DNA from: a virus
Strand: one strand, 5' to 3'
Length of the DNA: 28,702 nt
UHGV virus genome: UHGV-0186015
Below the pieces are notes generated by a model, which saw only the letters and a program-made list of their open reading frames with translations, had not been told where the DNA came from and did no database searches. The position numbers were made by a program, and so were the translations under genes. Below, piece by piece: positions 1,047 to 11,274 of the stretch. The stretch's first letter is position 1; each line of letters begins with the position of its first letter.

Positions 1047-1408
1047 TATGCTCCAGCCTCCGGTGCTTTTGGCATTACTGCCCAGTGAGTGATATTAATA
1101 TTTTCAAGGTCCCCGATCTGAAATGTCCACTGCCATTCTCCGGTTTCTTTTTGTCCCCAGGTGTACCAGAGAGAACGCCAGCCAATCAGCCAGCCTTCTC
1201 CATTAGCATCAAATAACAGAACACTTTCATTTGCTGGTGGCAGTTCAGCTGACACTGGTATTATTTTGTTTTCCAGTGCCGCACATTTAGCTTCTAGCGC
1301 GTCGAATTTACGTACCAGGTACTCAGCATTTGTTTCGTTCACTTTCAGATCTCGCGGTACACATTTCCCGCGAAGAAACCCTTCCATTTCGAAAACATTC
1401 ATGCGCAT
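1046..1408 (-). CDS. Small phage protein with DUF551-like C-terminus (YfdS-like by length and position)
   Basis: 120-aa ORF, C-terminal ITHWAVMP motif; translationally coupled to neighbours in the leftward operon. Confidence 0.55.
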   Translation of the reverse strand: MRMNVFEMEGFLRGKCVPRDLKVNETNAEYLVRKFDALEAKCAALENKIIPVSAELPPANESVLLFDANGEGWLIGWRSLWYTWGQKETGEWQWTFQIGDLENINITHWAVMPKAPEAGA

Positions 1409-1935
1409 TTGCGTAACTCCGATAAATCGTTAAAACGTTCCATAAACATCCCGTAGGCATGACCCGGTGCCAGTGGAATCACGTTGAACATCTCTGTTGC
1501 CGGGATGCCTTCCAGTACAGGCCAGAAAGAGCCATCATCAAGCCCGAGATCGCGGCGTTCGGTTGCCAGCATGATGAGATCGGCATATTTCACGGGTGTA
1601 CTCATAACTGGGGGTAACCCGTATTTCTCACGGATTACGGCGTCTATTTTTTCTTCCATCCGTTTATAGTCAGGAAGAAGGCGTTTCAGTGGTGCGGGAA
1701 TGTCCTGGCAATACGCTTCTGTTGCATCATGCATTAACGCTTCAAAAGCAAATTCCTGCGGCACCAGCTGGCTGCAAAGAACCGCATGTTGGGCGACGCT
1801 GTAGAAGTGCGAAAGATGACCGGCAAAGCGACAGATATTTGAAAGGGAAACCGCGATATCGTTAATATCGATGTCGTCTTTATTTATCTTGTCATAATAA
1901 AAATGCTTCCCGGAAAAAGTTTTAATAAATGACAT
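1399..1935 (-). CDS. yfdR: HD-domain phosphohydrolase (YfdR-like)
   Basis: His/Asp metal-ligand pattern (HLSHFYSVAQHAV ... MHDATEAY ... D); internal ATG at 1933-1935 preferred because GGAGA sits 5-6 nt upstream, giving 178 aa. The longer 1399..1962 ORF is the alternative. Confidence 0.65.
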   Translation of the reverse strand: MSFIKTFSGKHFYYDKINKDDIDINDIAVSLSNICRFAGHLSHFYSVAQHAVLCSQLVPQEFAFEALMHDATEAYCQDIPAPLKRLLPDYKRMEEKIDAVIREKYGLPPVMSTPVKYADLIMLATERRDLGLDDGSFWPVLEGIPATEMFNVIPLAPGHAYGMFMERFNDLSELRKCA

Positions 1936-2028
1936 TTTGTTCTCCACGTATATGCACTGCACCGCGCTGAATTCTGGTAAAAGGAAGCCCTCACCATCCG
2001 GTGATTATTGAGTTAATTACGTTTCCAT

Positions 2029-2062: not shown

Positions 2063-2887
2063 TCAGGCGGTGAAAGTACCAATAAAGGTTTCTACTTTGC
2101 TGTCTTTGAATTTCTCAACAAGCAGATCACGAAATTCGTTAGCCATTTCTTCCTGCACCGCTTCCAGCTGAATAATGCGCAGAACCAGTACAGGACGATC
2201 GCCAGTGATAATGCTGAGGCGTAATTTAAACGGACGTTCTTTCAGACCTTCAAACGGAACGCATTTAAATTCAAATGTCACTGGCATAATGTCTTTGGTC
2301 TTCGCTTCGACAGACTCCATCAGGGAGCGTTTGCCGCTGAAGTCATTATCTTCAAAATCAGCGGTCTGGTTCGCTTCAATTGTGATTTTACGGATCGCCG
2401 CAGCCGCTTTGGTTGCCTGAATGGCGTCACCATTAGCATCAAAGCCCACAAGGTAGTCGGCCCAGTCTTCAATCCATTCTGCCAGTGACTTCTGGGAGTT
2501 ACGCTCGCCGTTAACAGACAACAGGGCAGAGAACGGTGCTGTCTTTTTCAGTTTGAGAGTGGCGGTGTTATCTGCGTGACCTGGTTCATCAATAGTACCC
2601 AGGTTAAGCACACTGACGGTTCGCATATTATCGGCATCGATAAAGCAGCGGGTGCCTTCATCTGCAAGATCTTTAGAATAACGGGTAAAGTCATCGATGC
2701 TGGCAGTGGAAAGCGCACCACGGAAACGGAAGCGATTTAAATTAAATTTTTCCAGATCATGAATGCGGAAATTCTCAGGCAATGCCACAGCATCGGCACC
2801 AATCTTACTGATAATTTCATTAACACCCTGAGCAGAAATAAGGGCATGGATTTGATTAATTGCGGTTGCGTCTAAGTTCTGAGACAT
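2063..2887 (-). CDS. yfdQ: DUF2303-family prophage protein (YfdQ-like)
   Basis: 274-aa ORF, the same length as CPS-53 YfdQ; gene order P-Q-R-S matches the CPS-53 yfd cluster. Symbol assigned from recall, not from a search. Confidence 0.65.
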
Positions 2888-2952: not shown

Positions 2953-3315
2953 TTAACGACCTGCTGCGCGGAGTTTTCCGTCAGGTTCACCGGCAAGAGT
3001 CAGTAATTGTCCCTGGTCTTCCTGCAGAATAGTCAGGCGACCACCGCGATTGACATACATCGGCGTTTCGGTGGTGTCTTCTTCGGAAATTTTCCCGCGG
3101 TTAGTCGGGCGAACATATGAGAGTTTGTGTTTGATTTTTACACGGTTCTCATCAAACGGTTCGATTTCCAGGTTGAGCGAGACCTTACCTTTGGTTTTCG
3201 TGTTCATCACACCGGAAGCGACTTCACTGAGAACAGCGCCGATTTTGGTTTCAAATACGCCGCCGTCCAGCTCCCCGATAAATGCCTGCACATCAGTACT
3301 GCGTTCGCTAGCCAT
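2953..3315 (-). CDS. Hypothetical phage protein, first gene of leftward operon (YfdP-like by length and position)
   Basis: Internal start MASERSTDV... chosen (120 aa) because AGGAG lies 7-8 nt upstream; the 182-aa N-terminal extension has a Cys/Arg-rich non-protein-like composition. Confidence 0.6.
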   Translation of the reverse strand: MASERSTDVQAFIGELDGGVFETKIGAVLSEVASGVMNTKTKGKVSLNLEIEPFDENRVKIKHKLSYVRPTNRGKISEEDTTETPMYVNRGGRLTILQEDQGQLLTLAGEPDGKLRAAGR

Positions 3316-3364
3316 TTTGCTGCTCCTCATCATATCGACCCTGCAAGGCCGATTAGTTTCTCCA

Positions 3365-3450
3365 CAAAACAGAGAAGAACACCTGCGGTGGCAGCCGCCC
3401 GGATGGATTGGGTTATGAGCCCGTCGTCCGGTGATGCTCTTCTCTGTTTT
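3365..3450 (-). repeat. 14-bp perfect inverted repeat (CAAAACAGAGAAGA ... TCTTCTCTGTTTTG) enclosing 58 nt, in the 5' leader of the leftward operon
   Basis: Arms read directly at 3365-3378 and 3437-3450; GC-rich interior; no U-tract after the stem; about 50 nt upstream of the first leftward start codon. Confidence 0.6.
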
Positions 3451-3915
3451 GTAAAAAGAGCGGTACCAGCCGGAAGCAATGGTACAAACTGATACCGCCA
3501 AGGCAGTGGCTGTTGTGGCGGGGTTGTCACTCAGGCGTATGGTCAGCCTGACAACCCGGTGTCCTCAACGGGGAAAGAGTAACCCCGCCATACTTACCGC
3601 CGCGCCATTTCGCGGATTACCACAACGCTGAGAGCACTTAGCCAGTTCGGCGCCACACTTTGTCTCGGCTCCATAAATGCTCTTATCGTTGCACCCTGGT
3701 CTCTTCCCAGGCGTCAAACCGAATCGCCACGCTGGTTAGGCGTCTTATCAGCATCATCATTGACTTGCACATTCCGGCTACCTGGTTTGTTTGCCCGAGC
3801 AAGGAGTGGATTGTCCCCTTTAACGTCTCCAGACCGCTAACGACGCATGTGCCATACGCCGTGTTACAACCAAACTTTGTTTGAATCTTGCCTGTTGCAT
3901 GTTTCTTTTTGATAC

Positions 3916-3943
3916 ATTATGTATCCCAAGGGTACATTGTCAA
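3916..3943 (-). promoter_or_regulatory. Candidate pL-type leftward early promoter with an operator-like near-palindrome in the spacer
   Basis: Minus strand reads TTGACA (3938-3943), 16-nt spacer, CATAAT (3916-3921); spacer contains ATGTATCCCAAGGGTACAT, which shares the TGTAC core with the OR palindromes. Confidence 0.45.
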
Positions 3944-3944
3944 G

Positions 3945-3970
3945 TATAAAAAAACCTGCCGAAGCAGGTT
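3945..3970 (-). terminator. Rho-independent terminator downstream of cI
   Basis: Minus strand: AACCTGC-TTCG-GCAGGTT stem followed by TTTTTATA, 13 nt after the cI stop. Confidence 0.6.
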
Positions 3971-3982
3971 CATAAATATTGA

Positions 3983-4657
3983 TTAGGTCTTTATTTTGTA
4001 TCTTCTTGGTTTTCCCGAGAAAATCACTGTACCAATTATAGAGCAATTACCGTTGATCTTAATGTAAGGTTCAGGCCAGTTTGGGTTTAATGCTTTGAGG
4101 TAACGCTGTGTTCCATCTTCTATCAACCGCTTGAAGGTGGTTTCGCCTGTATCGTGCATCAATGCAATAACGTCGTCACCGTGGCAGGCAGGGACTTCAG
4201 GATCAACAAAAATCATGTCTCCTGGGCGGTACTCATCAATCATTGAATCACCAATCACCCGCAAGATATAAGTCATTTCACCACATGGTACAGGGCAGGG
4301 ATAAGTTTCTGCTGTGCTCAAATCAACCTCAGAATAACCAACTTCTTTCCATGCTCCGGCCTGTACCCATGATATGACAGGGACTAACGTTATTTGTTTG
4401 TTAGTGATTGAAACATCAGGTTTTTTTGTGATGTTCGTTGTCTGGTGTTCTTGATCAAGCCATCCGACAGGCAGGTCGAAACATTTTTCGATGTGCCGTG
4501 CCATGCTGTCACCGATATTTTTAGTTGCACCATCTCCCATAAACCTGCTGGTCTGGGTTGGCTCGCGATCAATCATGGTGGCAAAGGAAGAATTCCCGCC
4601 AACACCATCTCTCAGTTTTCTGGCGTTAGACCGCCGGATGTCATGGACTGTTTTCAT
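3983..4657 (-). CDS. cI: CI-type prophage repressor (N-terminal HTH, C-terminal S24 LexA-like autopeptidase)
   Basis: 224 aa; GDSM (catalytic Ser) and FKRL (Lys) motifs; Ala-Gly candidate cleavage site in VQAGAW; divergent from a Cro-like gene across an operator region. Confidence 0.88.
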   Translation of the reverse strand: MKTVHDIRRSNARKLRDGVGGNSSFATMIDREPTQTSRFMGDGATKNIGDSMARHIEKCFDLPVGWLDQEHQTTNITKKPDVSITNKQITLVPVISWVQAGAWKEVGYSEVDLSTAETYPCPVPCGEMTYILRVIGDSMIDEYRPGDMIFVDPEVPACHGDDVIALMHDTGETTFKRLIEDGTQRYLKALNPNWPEPYIKINGNCSIIGTVIFSGKPRRYKIKT

Positions 4658-4747
4658 AATGAAATTAAAACCTTTGTACCGTTAAGGTACAAGTATCTTG
4701 AAGGTTCATTTTAATCATGTAATATGTACACCGGAGGTACATATTGT
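4658..4747. promoter_or_regulatory. Immunity-region operators OR with divergent pRM/pR
   Basis: Two perfect palindromes: TTGTACC-N5-GGTACAA (4674-4692) and AATATGTAC-N7-GTACATATT (4721-4745). Candidate pR: TTGAAG (4698-4703), 16 nt, TAATAT (4720-4725). Candidate pRM on minus strand: TTGTAC / TTTAAT ending ~6 nt before the cI ATG, suggesting a leaderless cI mRNA. Confidence 0.6.
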
Positions 4748-4948
4748 ATGAAAGCGTATTGGGACTCTTTAACCAAAGAACAGCAGGGCGAGTTGGCCGG
4801 AAAAGTTGGCTCAACACCAGGCTACTTACGGCTGGTTTTCAATGGTTATAAAAAAGCCAGTTTTGTGCTGGCTAAAAAAATTGAGCAATGCACGTCAGGT
4901 GCAATTACGAAATCTGACTTAAGACCGGATATCTATCCGAAAGATTAA
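4748..4948 (+). CDS. cro: Cro-like / YdaS-type small HTH regulator
   Basis: 66 aa from the ATG at 4748, with GGAGG 10 nt upstream; first rightward gene opposite cI. Confidence 0.7.
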   Translation: MKAYWDSLTKEQQGELAGKVGSTPGYLRLVFNGYKKASFVLAKKIEQCTSGAITKSDLRPDIYPKD

Positions 4949-4979: not shown

Positions 4980-5549
4980 ATGAGGCTAACCGTGGGTAAG
5001 CATCACTGGAAAGTAGAAAAACAGCCTGAGTGGTACGTGAAAGCTGTCAGAAAAACTATCGCGGCATTGCCGGGGGGTTACGCTGAAGCTGCTGACTGGC
5101 TGGATGTAACAGAGAACGCATTATTTAACCGCCTTCGTGCCGATGGCGATCAGATTTTCCCGCTGGGATGGGCAATGGTTTTACAGCGTGCTGCTGGCAC
5201 TCACCACATTGCGGATGCAGTCGCACAGTCTGCTGGTGGGGTGTTTGTATCGCTTCCTGAAATTGAGGAAGTAGAGAACGCCGATATCAACCAACGCCTG
5301 CTGGAGGTCATTGAACAGATCGGCAGTTATTCAAAACAGATTCGTTCAGCAATTGAAGACGGGGTGGTGGAACCACACGAGCAGGCAGCAATTAACGACG
5401 AACTGTACCTGTCAATTTCGAAGCTGCAGGAGCATGCAGCACTGGTCTACAAAATCTTTTGCATTTCAGAAAGTAATGACGCCCGCGAGTGTGCAGCTCC
5501 GGGCGTCGTGGCGTCGATTGCTTCTAATTGTGGAGAAACTAACGCATGA
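4980..5549 (+). CDS. Putative CII-like / YdaT-type early regulatory protein
   Basis: 189-aa ORF immediately after cro; functional assignment is from position and a vague family resemblance only. Confidence 0.5.
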
Positions 5550-5904: not shown

Positions 5905-6835
5905 ATTAACCGGCTATGTATGGGATGGTTGCGCAGCGTCAGGCATGAAATTATCCAGTGTGGCAATTATGGCCCGCCTGGCTGATTTCAGTAATGACGA
6001 AGGTGTGTGCTGGCCATCAATTGAAACCATTGCCCGCCAGATTGGCGCAGGGGTGAGTACTGTAAGAACGGCTATCGCACGGCTGGAAGCAGAAGGCTGG
6101 TTAACGCGTAAGGCGCGTCGCCAGGGTAACCGCAATGCGTCGAACGTCTATCAGCTTAACGTTGCAAAGCTTCAGGCTGCGGCACTTTCTCAACTGTCAG
6201 ATTCTGACCCGTCAAAATCTGACGCATCAAAATCTGACCCGTCAAAATTTGATGCGTCGAAATCTGGCAAAAAAGCGGGTTTTCACCCGTCAGAATCTGG
6301 CGGGGATCCGTCAGTAAAATCAAAACATGATCCGTCAGATAAAAAACCTTCTCGTCCGGACGCTTCGCAACCGGACACGCAGAAGGCTGAACAGGATTTT
6401 TTAACTCGCCATCCTGATGCGGTTGTATTCAGCCCTAAAAAGCGCCAGTGGGGAACGCAGGATGATTTGACCTGCGCACAGTGGCTCTGGAAAAAAATCA
6501 TCGCCCTGTACGAGCAGGCCGCCGAATGTGACGGCGAGGTGGTACGTCCGAAAGAACCGAACTGGACAGCCTGGGCAAATGAAATTCGCCTGATGTGTGT
6601 ACAGGACGGTCGTACCCACAAACAAATCTGCGAGATGTACAACCGTGTCAGCCGCGACCCGTTCTGGTGCCGTAACGTGCTCAGCCCGTCGAAGCTGCGG
6701 GAAAAATGGGATGAACTTTCCCTGCGCTTATCGCCGTCCGTCAGCACGTACACAGAAAAACGCGAAGACCCGTACTTCAAAGCCAGTTACGACAATGTGG
6801 ACTACAGCCAGATCCCGGCAGGATTCAGGGGGTGA
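5894..6835 (+). CDS. Replication initiator (lambda O-like), N-terminal HTH with internal iteron-encoded linker
   Basis: 313 aa; N-terminal HTH typical of phage replication initiators; middle SDSDPSKSDASKSDPSKFDASKS linker is encoded by tandem DNA repeats, as in lambda O/ori. Confidence 0.8.
   Translation: MSTKLTGYVWDGCAASGMKLSSVAIMARLADFSNDEGVCWPSIETIARQIGAGVSTVRTAIARLEAEGWLTRKARRQGNRNASNVYQLNVAKLQAAALSQLSDSDPSKSDASKSDPSKFDASKSGKKAGFHPSESGGDPSVKSKHDPSDKKPSRPDASQPDTQKAEQDFLTRHPDAVVFSPKKRQWGTQDDLTCAQWLWKKIIALYEQAAECDGEVVRPKEPNWTAWANEIRLMCVQDGRTHKQICEMYNRVSRDPFWCRNVLSPSKLREKWDELSLRLSPSVSTYTEKREDPYFKASYDNVDYSQIPAGFRG
6203..6345 (+). repeat. Candidate phage replication origin: four tandem 15-bp iterons plus three degenerate copies inside the O-like gene
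   Basis: TCTGACCCGTCAAAA / TCTGACGCATCAAAA / TCTGACCCGTCAAAA / TTTGATGCGTCGAAA at 6203-6262, then CCGTCAG-containing copies to ~6345 followed by A-rich sequence. Confidence 0.6.
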
Positions 6836-7320: not shown

Positions 7321-7973
7321 TGAGTAATAAATATTGCCAGGCGCTGGTGGAGCTGCGGAACAAACCAGCCCATGAACTGAAGGAAGTGGGCGATCAGTGG
7401 CGCACGCCGGATAACATTTTCTGGGGAATTAACACCCTGTTTGGCCCGTTTGTCCTGGATCTGTTTACTGACGGTGATAACGCCAAATGTGCCGCGTATT
7501 ACACGGCGGAAGACAACGCGCTGGCGCATGACTGGTCAGAACGTCTTGCGGAGCTTAAAGGCGCTGCCTTTGGTAATCCCCCATACAGCCGCGCCAGTCA
7601 GCATGAGGGGCTATACATCACCGGCATGCGTTACATCATGAAGCATGCCAGTGCCATGCGTGATAAAGGCGGGCGCTATGTTTTCCTGATCAAAGCTGCC
7701 ACCAGCGAAGTGTGGTGGCCGGAAGATGCAGATCATATTGCTTTTATTCGCGGGCGTATTGGTTTTGAACTGCCTGCTTGGTTTATCCAGAAAGATGAGA
7801 AGCAGGTGCCGACAGGCGCTTTCTTCGCTGGTGCTATTGCTGTTTTCGACAAGACCTGGAAGGGACCGGCAATCAGCTACATCGGGCGCGATGAACTTGA
7901 GGCATGTGGTGAGGCGTTTCTGGCGCAGGTTCGCCAGCAGGCGGAAAAACTGGTCAGGGAGATGGCGGCATGA
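7320..7973 (+). CDS. Phage Dam-type DNA N6-adenine methyltransferase
   Basis: 217 aa from the ATG at 7320 (TAATGA overlap with upstream stop); catalytic NPPY motif in FGNPPYS. Confidence 0.75.
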   Translation: MSNKYCQALVELRNKPAHELKEVGDQWRTPDNIFWGINTLFGPFVLDLFTDGDNAKCAAYYTAEDNALAHDWSERLAELKGAAFGNPPYSRASQHEGLYITGMRYIMKHASAMRDKGGRYVFLIKAATSEVWWPEDADHIAFIRGRIGFELPAWFIQKDEKQVPTGAFFAGAIAVFDKTWKGPAISYIGRDELEACGEAFLAQVRQQAEKLVREMAA

Positions 7974-8296
7974 CGACGTTAACTCAATGCCAGCAGCAGG
8001 TGCTGGATATGCTGATTTCTTATCAGAAAGAACGTGGCTTCCCGCCAACCAATCAGGAGGTGGCAACCATGCTGGGATACCGTTCAGTGAATGCAGCGGT
8101 GGAGCATCTTCGCGCACTGGAGAAAAAAGGCGTCATCACGATAAAGCGTGGTGTGGCCCGGGGCATCACGCTTCATACCGCGGTGAAGGACGACGACAGC
8201 GAGGCGGCCGGGATTATCCGCGCACTGCTTGCTGGTGAGGAAAACGCCAGGCTGCGTGCAGCCCACTGGTTACATGAGAGGGGGCTGAAAGTATGA
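7970..8296 (+). CDS. LexA N-terminal DNA-binding-domain-only protein (no S24 peptidase domain)
   Basis: 108 aa; LTQCQQQVLDMLISYQKERGFPPTNQEVATMLGYRSVNAAVEHLRALEKKGVITI matches the LexA winged-helix N-terminal domain; ORF stops before any peptidase domain. Confidence 0.75.
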   Translation: MTTLTQCQQQVLDMLISYQKERGFPPTNQEVATMLGYRSVNAAVEHLRALEKKGVITIKRGVARGITLHTAVKDDDSEAAGIIRALLAGEENARLRAAHWLHERGLKV

Positions 8297-10521: not shown

Positions 10522-11274
10522 ATGAACCTTGAAGCCTTACCAAAATATTACTCCCCAAAATCTCCCAAATTGAGCGATGAGGCACCGGCGACAGGCTCGG
10601 GTGGTTTAACGATTACGGATGTGATGGCTGCGCAGGGGATGGTGCAGTCGAAAGCACCGCTTGGGTTTGCCTTATTCCTGGCAAAAGTTGGTGTTCAGGA
10701 TCCTCAGTTTGCGATTGAAGGTCTGCTCAATTACGCGATGGCACTGGATAACCCGACATTGAACAAATTGAGTGAAGAAACCCGGTTACAGATCATCCCT
10801 TACCTTGTGAATTTTGCCTTTGCTGATTATTCCAGGTCTGCGGCAAGTAAGGCTCGCTGTGAGCATTGTGCTGGTACTGGATTTCATAATGTATTGCGCG
10901 AAGTGGTGAAACACTCCAGAAGCGGGGAGTCTGTTATCAAGGAAGAGTGGGTGAAGGAATTATGTCAGCATTGCCATGGTAAGGGAGAAGTCAGCACGGC
11001 TTGCAGAGGGTGTAAGGGTAAAGGCATTGTCCTGGATGAAAAAAGAACCCGGCTTCATGGCGCGCCTGTTTATAAGATTTGTGGGCGTTGCAATGGAAAT
11101 CGGTTTAGTCGTTTACCGACCACACTGGCACGACGTCATGTCCAGAAGCTGTTACCAGACCTGACTGATTATCAGTGGTACAAAGGATATGCAGACGTCA
11201 TTGATAAACTGGTAACAAAGTGCTGGCAGGAAGAAGCATTCGCAGAGTTACAGTTGCAAAAAGTGACACGATAG
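10522..11274 (+). CDS. Q: Late-gene antiterminator Q (zinc-finger Q family)
   Basis: 250 aa with CxxC ... CxxC ... CxxC zinc-ribbon motifs; sits immediately upstream of the late promoter/terminator and lysis cassette. Confidence 0.8.
   Translation: MNLEALPKYYSPKSPKLSDEAPATGSGGLTITDVMAAQGMVQSKAPLGFALFLAKVGVQDPQFAIEGLLNYAMALDNPTLNKLSEETRLQIIPYLVNFAFADYSRSAASKARCEHCAGTGFHNVLREVVKHSRSGESVIKEEWVKELCQHCHGKGEVSTACRGCKGKGIVLDEKRTRLHGAPVYKICGRCNGNRFSRLPTTLARRHVQKLLPDLTDYQWYKGYADVIDKLVTKCWQEEAFAELQLQKVTR

Follow-up and report, generated by a model that had tools for sequence, protein, structure and literature searches.

In bacteriophage lambda, the leader of gene N carries an RNase III hairpin tens of nucleotides before the first start codon of the early-left operon, and its cleavage alters N expression. 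tRNA mimicry occurs in the thrS operator and in the precursor of the P1/P7 C4 RNA, which is cut by RNase P. Early-left leaders of the dicF type have been known since the 1990s, and phage early leaders with long hairpins cut by RNase III are equally familiar. The small RNA (sRNA) DicF, encoded in the Qin prophage, exists in a 53-nt form produced by intrinsic termination and RNase E processing of the 5′ end, and in a 72-nt form produced by RNase III processing of read-through dicBF RNA (PMC5069750; PMC9438474). Here, we describe a long untranslated leader in the viral genome UHGV-0186015, of which a stretch of 28,702 nucleotides (the window) was analysed. The leader interval, positions 3316-3982, separates the phage repressor gene from yfdP, the first early-left gene. 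It contains an inverted repeat that belongs to a cassette of about 100 nt, which is very probably a functional structured leader RNA, and an intrinsic terminator related to that of DicF lies directly upstream of it.

The inverted repeat reported by the first-pass annotation of this DNA is real and exceeds chance by far. Its arms had been given as 14 bp at 3365-3378 and 3437-3450; they comprise 15 perfect bp, ACAAAACAGAGAAGA at 3364-3378 and TCTTCTCTGTTTTGT at 3438-3452, the earlier positions being off by 1-2 nt. If mismatches are allowed, the arms extend to 25 nt at 84%. The interior of 59 nt has a G+C content of 66%, and on the transcribed minus strand the 3′ end of the stem (3364) lies 48 nt ahead of the yfdP ATG. 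Across 200 shuffled versions of the 667-nt leader, perfect inverted repeats with spacers of up to 100 nt reached maximal lengths of 6-12 bp, versus 15 bp in the real sequence. The corresponding 106-nt RNA folds with −51.2 kcal/mol versus −25.8 ± 3.3 kcal/mol after shuffling (z = −7.6), a value equalled by none of 200 shuffles. The cassette and the elements that connect it to yfdP are as follows.

3364-3452, minus strand: long-stem RNA cassette, defined by fold z score, covariation and covariance model R1
3452-3433 / 3383-3364, minus strand: P1 stem of the cassette, 20 bp, including the perfect 15 bp 3452-3438 / 3378-3364
3431-3399, minus strand: hairpin 1, with apical GGG 3422-3420, loop CUCAUAA 3419-3413 and CCC 3412-3410
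3398-3385, minus strand: hairpin 2, variable between copies in length and sequence
3356-3363, minus strand: conserved GGAGAAAC motif directly 3′ of the P1 stem
3351-3336, minus strand: small hairpin CGGCC/GGUCG
3328-3323, minus strand: Shine-Dalgarno (SD) sequence GAGGAG
3315-3313, minus strand: start codon of yfdP

All long-stem copies share one architecture, in which a terminator U-run is followed by a helix of about 20 bp enclosing hairpin 1 and hairpin 2, and the 3′ arm by GGAGAAAC. The consensus of hairpin 1 reads CCGGN-CGAC-GGG-CUCAUAA-CCC-AAUCCA-NCCGG. In the minimum-energy fold, GGAGAAAC pairs with the terminator U-run and thereby lengthens the helix to 25 bp; its GGAGA core is present in 25 of 25 aligned members, in some of them with a register shift of 2 nt. 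Perfect 15-bp arms are peculiar to the Escherichia subgroup, and a mid-helix mismatch is conserved in most other genera.

Strong evidence for an RNA structure comes from covariation. The alignment comprised 25 distinct copies and 34 pairs, giving 850 pair cells, and covered the genera Escherichia, Shigella, Citrobacter, Enterobacter, Kosakonia, Mixta, Erwinia, Leclercia, Phytobacter, Buttiauxella, Pseudescherichia and Pseudocitrobacter. Standard pairs occupied 96.8% of these cells versus 37-50% when the partners were slid by 1-3 columns. Both sides had changed in 10 of the 34 pairs, and the covariation score was matched by none of 500 shuffles. G·U pairs filled 50 cells, A·C combinations only 3, and a covariance model built from the alignment (R1) scored 118.7 bits on the minus strand and 43 bits on the plus strand. 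Because of the covariation, the asymmetry between G·U and A·C and the strand preference of R1, the cassette is to be regarded as RNA of the transcript from the leftward promoter pL and not as a DNA palindrome. The proposal of a riboregulatory structure on the leftward transcript has thus been borne out, the stem being kept in related prophages with compensatory changes.

The absence of gene N and of a coding sequence from the long pL leader, noted at first pass, was upheld by the list of open reading frames (ORFs), the indel patterns, the annotation and the gene content. Among homologues, the cassette measures 104, 105, 106, 108, 112, 123, 127, 129 or 131 nt, and such differences, of 1, 2, 4 and more nt, are incompatible with a continuous reading frame. 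The minus-strand ORFs of the leader start with GTG or TTG and encode 39-66 aa; an indel of 4 nt lies inside the 29/39-aa ORF and breaks the sole ATG ORF of module X, a conserved upstream segment described below. A small protein gene in the leader was rejected on account of such homologue indels, which are not multiples of 3. In some genomes, PGAP calls of a 'hypothetical' or 'frameshifted hypothetical protein' cover the cassette stretch. Rfam searches of the whole window at gathering score and of 3000-4300 at E ≤ 10 returned chance-level matches only, namely the terminator look-alikes STnc370, STnc50 and rsmX and one miRNA hairpin.

An exact-match scan with the apical sequence of hairpin 1 retrieved at least 120 viral contigs and 29 stretches of species-representative genomes; about two dozen genome stretches, from many genera of the Enterobacterales, contain the cassette. 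Among 5426 complete E. coli genomes, 2490 (about 46%) carry it, nearly always on the chromosome, with a median of one copy and a maximum of five. The order of repressor gene, leader, terminator, cassette, (yfdP) yfdQ and yfdR is kept while repressor identity ranges from 28 to 100%, and the leaders of these syntenic prophages are 420-1300 nt long. Given the copy number, the constant synteny and the single copy in the window, we rejected a mobile element, and with it the miniature inverted-repeat element that had been considered at first. The idea of an attenuator or terminator has likewise been abandoned for this hairpin: its 3′ arm leads into GGAGAAAC and not into a U-run, and the true terminator is a separate hairpin upstream (3499-3453).

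Position is equally well conserved. A G+C-rich hairpin followed by at least five T residues lies immediately 5′ of the cassette in 55 of 56 distinct contexts. The GGAGA motif is 25-46 nt from the next start codon in 21 of 27 distinct contexts with differing first genes, and the combination of a small hairpin and an SD sequence between cassette and start codon recurs before different first genes; in several contexts, the next ORF is 100-150 nt away. The e14 element of E. coli K-12 shares the repressor; its ymfK-ymfJ spacer comprises just 174 nt and has neither a long leader nor a cassette. A kissing interaction between a loop of the cassette and the yfdP SD sequence was considered and dropped, the 5-nt match in the window not being conserved elsewhere.

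Upstream of the cassette, the leader holds further structured elements. Their relationship to the DicF locus, the DicF-like terminator and the tRNA-like apex of hairpin 1 had been overlooked at first pass, and module A had not been singled out.

3626-3512, minus strand: module A, a cloverleaf-like RNA (homology to Qin and P1; RNAalifold)
3626-3620 / 3518-3512, minus strand: closing stem of module A, GUUGUGG / CCACAAC
3453-3511, minus strand: DicF-like sRNA candidate, composed of the 12-nt spacer or seed AGCCACUGCCUU (3511-3500) and the terminator
3499-3453, minus strand: leader intrinsic terminator, with a 13-bp stem in hairpin 3499-3459 and C plus five U at 3458-3453
3629-3876, minus strand: module X, a conserved non-coding segment and predicted multi-hairpin RNA that ends in boxA-like UGCUCUC (3637-3631)

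Module A is 91% identical to the sequence directly 5′ of dicF in Qin, and because of this homology to the dicF flank, some portion of 3316-3982 has a match in 4755 of 5426 E. coli genomes. It folds into a four-helix junction, for which RNAalifold gives 30 pairs, seven of them with compensatory changes, mainly in the CU-rich hairpin. Within the closing stem lie a hairpin CCGCG/CGCGG, a stem CGGU/ACCG around the CU-rich hairpin and a hairpin GUUGUCAGG.../...UGACAAC. A covariance model of module A (R2) scored 144 bits in the window, 142 in Qin and 95 in phage P1, with no other matches. An alternative fold through a 10-bp repeat (3516-3525 / 3581-3590) was discarded, as it is not kept in P1 and other homologues in which the cloverleaf hairpins are kept. 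Module A stands directly before a terminator in three unrelated settings, the pL leader of the window, Qin dicF and the P1 ban operon.

Several features of module A deserve mention in their own right. The loop of its second hairpin (3570-3590) is always CU-rich in homologues (UCCUUCC, UCCUCC); it resembles an anti-SD sequence and could pair with GGAG-type motifs, e.g. GGAGAAAC. The boxA-like UGCUCUC (3637-3631, minus strand) lies 4 nt ahead of module A and before the hairpin CCGCG-AAAUGG-CGCGG, an order that recalls antitermination sites of the nut or rrn type; the corresponding place in sister leaders is occupied by GUGCUCUCUUC or GUGCGCUUCC. A copy with 86% identity is found at 6147-6262 of the Actinobacillus phage vB_Apl-pPE4 (H110), whose host belongs to the Pasteurellaceae, which reflects either transfer over an unexpectedly broad host range or a record affected by mislabelling or contamination.

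The leader terminator has a stability of about −18.6 kcal/mol (RNAfold, identical sequence). GGCGGTATCAGTTT is common to its 5′ arm and DicF, and the flanks are alike; the loop is different, and the 3′ arm shows co-variation. The Rfam DicF model (RF00039, gathering score 48 bits) matched neither the window at gathering score nor 3000-4300 at E ≤ 10; the Qin control scored 76.7 bits. The setting is that of DicF, with a lambdoid early-left operon, module A upstream and an intrinsic terminator at the end. The terminator RNA is therefore DicF-like by position and ancestry, and it is not DicF. Among prophages, at least five different seeds precede the shared GGCGG terminator stem, namely UUUCUGGUGACGUUU of DicF, GCUGUGUGUAGUCUU, AGCCACUGCCUU, AUGCCAACUGGUAGUUUUU and GCUGCAUUGCUGUCUUU. 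Such variety is suggestive of a DicF superfamily whose members have diversified in their targets.

At its tip, hairpin 1 carries CGGGCUCAUAACCC, which matches the known anticodon stem-loop of E. coli tRNA-fMet in 14 of 14 nt, including the three G-C pairs characteristic of initiator tRNA. A tRNA-fMet-like gene fragment containing CGGGCUCAUAACCC also turned up in the scan (L152). UCAU in a 7-nt loop closed by GGG/CCC is kept in all members, even in distant copies with the loops GUCAUAU and UUCAUAU (P1) or CUCAUUA (ST64B). Klebsiella-type phages have a short-stem relative directly after tRNA-Asn and tRNA-Arg and downstream of Q, which consists of a 6-7-bp GGCCUG/CAGGCC stem followed by (A/G)CCA, and one contig (L106) carries both the long-stem and the short-stem form. 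ARAGORN called no tRNA in the window, the Rfam tRNA model had no match there, and neither of the two classified the long-stem or the short-stem form as tRNA. The cassette is devoid of a D arm and a T loop, and only 3 bp close its 'anticodon' loop. Hence, it looks tRNA-derived or tRNA-mimicking, yet is not a tRNA. Its apex is under selection for something beyond a plain processing helix. As a separate observation, Klebsiella phage GZ7 (L010, 1508-1575) and similar viral contigs contain an unannotated tRNA-like RNA between Q and the lysis genes, next after tRNA-Asn and tRNA-Arg. Its acceptor-like stem has 6-7 bp, the UCAU hairpin is that of the cassette, the second hairpin co-varies, and (A/G)CCA stands at the 3′ end, the D and T arms being absent.

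The remaining leader modules have relatives elsewhere. Module X is 83% identical to sequences in Uetakevirus phages, where it precedes tRNA-Arg, and in P1, where it lies between trnI and ban; 8 pairs show double changes among these three sequences. This non-coding segment of about 245 nt was located in the window (3629-3876) and in L160 (2501-2745), L004 (4771-5000) and L161 (2501-2610). Module X is thus common to a lambdoid prophage, Uetakevirus phages and P1-like plasmid-prophages, and adjoins tRNA genes in the latter two. In sister prophages, the place of module A is taken by a type-B module, which in Qin is located after DicF. Together with a leader-type terminator it matched Rfam STnc100 (RF02076) over the full length with at best 42.4 bits, the gathering score being 47. 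Copies with sub-threshold STnc100 scores of 33-42 bits lie in L007 (2651-2874), L002 (2728-2937), L004 (3842-3961) and L269 (1798-1916), and PGAP labels the type-B module a 'frameshifted hypothetical protein'.

The P1 ban operon opens with module A, 40 nt past the C1-controlled promoter Pban, in a stretch that GenBank names 'dicF-like region', and it also has the type-B module and module X. Moreover, it contains four long-stem cassettes.

2825-2907, 3265-3351, 3482-3594 and 3767-3845 of L004 (AF234172 66239-71333), plus strand: P1 long-stem cassettes

These are located on the sense strand of the ban operon beneath the predicted antisense ORFs plp and upl, which may be mis-annotations, and two of them have the UCAU apex. 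The P1 copies sit in a tRNA array and one contains the T-arm-like GGGUUCGAAUCCC. Judged from sequence, every non-coding module of the leader recurs in the non-coding parts of the ban operon. In ST64B, an extra long-stem cassette with the arms CAACAGAUAAGAG / CUCUUAUCGUUG (L269, 1736-1803) lies directly before the type-B module; therefore, cassettes can occur in tandem in one leader.

By its sequence, the window represents a lambdoid prophage of the cdtI / Ayreon / Stx2c-phage / mEp460 / SfV group, to which it is 95-98% identical across 3316-3982. The neighbouring genes and signals are listed below.

3983-4657, minus strand: ORF of the cI-type, ymfK-like repressor, Peptidase_S24 (Pfam PF00717, E = 1.5e-26)
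3945-3971, minus strand: repressor-gene terminator, stem 3971-3952 followed by a U-run (terminator scan)
3916-3943, minus strand: pL promoter, −35 TTGACA 3943-3938, 16-nt spacer, −10 CATAAT 3921-3916
2953-3315, minus strand: yfdP, first early-left gene, ATG 3315-3313 (RefSeq WP_000135680, 'protein YfdP')
2063-2887, minus strand: yfdQ (Pfam DUF2303)
1399-1962, minus strand: yfdR (Pfam YfbR-like)
4748-4948: cro-like gene
4980-5549: CII-like gene, followed by replication genes
10522-11274: Q antiterminator gene, followed by lysis genes

In a 98%-identical prophage, RefSeq names the repressor 'ymfK: LexA family protein' and annotates no feature between yfdP and the repressor gene. The terminator scan resolved the repressor-gene terminator into an 8-bp stem GAACCTGC/GCAGGTTT followed by TTTTATACTT. 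The leftward-oriented pL matches 11 of 12 consensus positions, and transcription probably starts near 3909, which would give an untranslated leader of about 590 nt (3316-3909). An operator-like palindrome TGTAC-N7-GTACA with one mismatch overlaps pL at 3920-3936. As its only further copies in the window, at 4675-4691 and 4725-4741 (chance expectation 0.35), sit in the pR/pRM region, the leftward promoter is taken to be the repressor-controlled pL. The window contains no N-like gene, and N is missing, together with cII and cIII, from the related phages SfII, SfV and SfIV (PMC3851460). A promoter scan found no promoter-like site between the leader terminator and yfdP, and no strong terminator was found within the early-left operon. 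Apart from this region, a 108-aa protein encoded at 7970-8296 (plus strand) immediately before rusA has the LexA DNA-binding domain alone (PF01726, E = 2.9e-19), the peptidase domain being absent.

How might these elements work together? The explanation we favour, tentatively and with somewhat less than even confidence, is that the cassette acts as an RNase III-type processing module in the 5′ untranslated region (UTR), where it separates a DicF-like sRNA from the early-left mRNA. The transcript initiated at pL (about 3909) would run through modules X and A, the DicF-like seed and terminator (3511-3453), the cassette that follows without a gap, the small hairpin and the SD sequence into yfdP. 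Most polymerases would stop at the leader terminator and release a DicF-family sRNA or leader RNA. Read-through transcripts would include the cassette, whose helix of 20-25 bp might be cut by RNase III. This cut would free the upstream sRNA with a short 3′ extension, as in the 72-nt DicF, and at the same time let the early-left mRNA begin some 40-60 nt ahead of yfdP, which could govern its stability or translation.

The size of the helix is consistent with such a role. RNase III accommodates a duplex of about 22 bp (PMC6212723), and the cassette offers 20 contiguous pairs, or 25 with the extension by the U-run and GGAGA. The DicF U-run of Qin is followed, at a distance of 8 nt, by a long-range stem of about 21 bp, and the end of the 72-nt DicF (53 + 19 nt) would fall inside the 5′ arm of this stem. 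Because the inverted repeat occupies the position of this Qin stem relative to the terminator, we infer that RNase III may cut in the cassette helix.

A number of points weigh against this explanation. The invariant UCAU loop, its GGG/CCC closure and the following AAUCCA are needless for a plain processing helix, and the fMet-like apex is not accounted for by RNase III processing. The 6-7-bp stem and NCCA of the Klebsiella-type relatives are too short for RNase III and have the look of a tRNA-type substrate, i.e. of RNase P. The P1 cassettes are not preceded by terminators. Published RNase III maps of E. coli K-12 do not cover the cassette because K-12 is without it. Finally, RNase III cleavage at the cassette is a prediction, and helix length alone would not predict specificity. 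As the invariant apex is left unaccounted for by RNase III processing, tRNA mimicry and put-like antitermination stay alive as explanations.

If tRNA mimicry were the function, the cassette would present an initiator-tRNA-like anticodon arm on the long stem as a scaffold, serving as a decoy, a sensor or a punctuation mark; candidate partners are MetRS, the 30S P site, initiation factors, a VapC-type anticodon nuclease and RNase P. We regard this as unlikely overall, even though the evidence from the apex speaks for it: the 14-nt match of CGGGCUCAUAACCC with the tRNA-fMet anticodon stem-loop, and UCAU with GGG/CCC in all members. The genomic surroundings point the same way, with the short-stem version and its (A/G)CCA right after tRNA-Asn and tRNA-Arg, the P1 copies in a tRNA array, one of them with GGGUUCGAAUCCC, and module X abutting tRNA genes in two other phages. 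On the other hand, neither ARAGORN nor Rfam sees a tRNA, the D arm and T loop are absent, the loop is held by 3 bp only, and the likeness could reflect ancestry from a decayed tRNA gene. A bolder version, distinctly improbable in our estimate, would make the cassette a new class of phage leader RNA in which an initiator anticodon-arm mimic on a long helix is read by a host or phage factor. If the mimicry is true, candidates for this factor would be RNA polymerase, the initiation machinery, and a toxin or defence nuclease directed at anticodons, and the RNA, as decoy, sensor or N-independent antitermination signal, would decide early-left expression in N-less lambdoid phages. The opposite extreme, a non-functional or DNA-level feature such as the remnant of a tRNA gene, a miniature mobile element, a palindrome bound by protein or a piece of a small protein gene, might draw on the tRNA-like flavour and on the (frameshifted) hypothetical proteins that PGAP places over the stretch in some genomes. 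It is very improbable, being largely refuted by covariation and strand asymmetry; the compensatory changes, the excess of G·U over A·C, the indels that are not multiples of three, and one undispersed copy per prophage in fixed synteny all contradict it.

Cis-acting antitermination of the type of HK022 put, replacing N, is quite unlikely in our view, with module A being a more plausible candidate for it than the inverted repeat; alternatively, the cassette might act on later terminators. The phage possesses Q and no N, N being absent also from sister phages (PMC3851460), a strong intrinsic terminator blocks the whole early-left operon, and expression of dicB, which lies beyond DicF, is established (PMC5069750). 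The recurrence of module A before terminators in three unrelated settings fits as well, and HK022 putL is also closely trailed by terminator-like hairpins. Against this, models R1 and R2 did not match HK022 putL/putR (L005), Rfam has no put family, and a cloverleaf or a stem with two hairpins differs from the two stems of put. Furthermore, the inverted repeat is positioned after the leader terminator, no strong internal terminator emerged from the scan of the early-left operon, and the association of module A with a terminator is accounted for just as well if both make up a single small RNA, type-B plus terminator being near STnc100. A 9-mer GCGCGGCGG, common to putL and module A by eye, was treated as chance. 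It is also improbable that the cassette is no more than a 5′-UTR stabiliser or translational regulator, an uncleaved hairpin that protects the mRNA or gates the ribosome-binding site of the first cistron. This would agree with the spacing of about 40 nt to the start codon, kept before different genes with the small hairpin and SD sequence in between, and the conserved GGAGAAAC could be a stand-by site or an anti-SD partner; yet the distance to the next ORF is 100-150 nt in several contexts, no start codon adjoins the copies of P1 and of the Klebsiella type, and no conserved pairing between cassette and SD sequence was seen, the 5-nt loop/SD match of the window being unconserved.

Cassettes with a tRNA-like apex that couple a terminator to the first cistron and are spread over Enterobacterales and P1 appear to be undescribed so far. 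No paper in the library searched by sequence carries the cassette or module A, though an earlier description may exist in the older literature; a preprint on Pas sRNAs was set aside as a prior description, as it covers late-region sRNAs from another locus. The N-less lambdoid group includes cdtI, Stx2c phages, mEp460, SfII/SfIV/SfV, ST64B and many relatives in Enterobacterales. Our analysis shows that the seemingly empty leader is made of conserved structured RNAs in series, interrupted mid-way by a strong terminator, so that it can now be asked which module lets polymerase pass, which RNA is released and which RNA is cut. Three subjects that had been separate are now linked: the locus of the DicF sRNA, the P1 ban operon with its non-coding parts, and the STnc100-like RNAs of prophages. 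Moreover, the analysis adds a covariation-supported RNA motif that lacks annotation and is carried by about 46% of complete E. coli genomes, Shiga-toxin and cdt phages being among its carriers; annotation pipelines now cover it with spurious or 'frameshifted' hypothetical proteins.

Among described systems, the dicF region of Qin is one of the closest, and by homology of its flanks the locus itself falls into the class of dicF-type early-left leaders. Both are N-less lambdoid early-left operons with module A upstream and the GGCGGTATCAGTTT start of the terminator, and in both a long helix begins 0-8 nt from the U-run. In contrast, seed and loop differ in the window, so that ftsZ and other DicF targets are not implied, and the Qin helix encloses a type-B/STnc100-like module of about 150 nt whereas the window helix surrounds a tRNA-like core of 59 nt with two hairpins. 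These helices are analogous in position, and their homology is not demonstrable. STnc100 itself is a near match to type-B plus terminator of sister prophages; the window with its module A does not match STnc100, and the cassette lies outside that model. The RNase III site of the lambda N leader, and also sib and the early RNase III sites of T7, are similarly placed, judging from what is known of lambda, and unrelated in sequence; unlike lambda, the window has neither N nor a nutL partner, and the apex of its cassette is a conserved tRNA-like motif. With HK022 putL/putR it shares a structured leader RNA near intrinsic terminators past the early promoters of an N-less lambdoid phage. There is no detectable similarity in sequence or structure, put consisting of two stems upstream of the terminators it suppresses and acting in cis through the β′ zinc-binding domain of RNA polymerase, while the inverted repeat follows its terminator. 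Like the tRNA mimics of the thrS operator and C4 RNA, the cassette places an anticodon-arm-like hairpin inside a non-tRNA transcript, the differences being that an initiator tRNA is mimicked and that the downstream genes are not translation factors. The P1 ban operon, finally, has a different order of modules, interleaved with real tRNA genes and with no terminators before the cassettes, yet it has in common with the window module A plus terminator, long-stem cassettes with related arms, in four copies, the type-B module known from the sister prophages, and module X.

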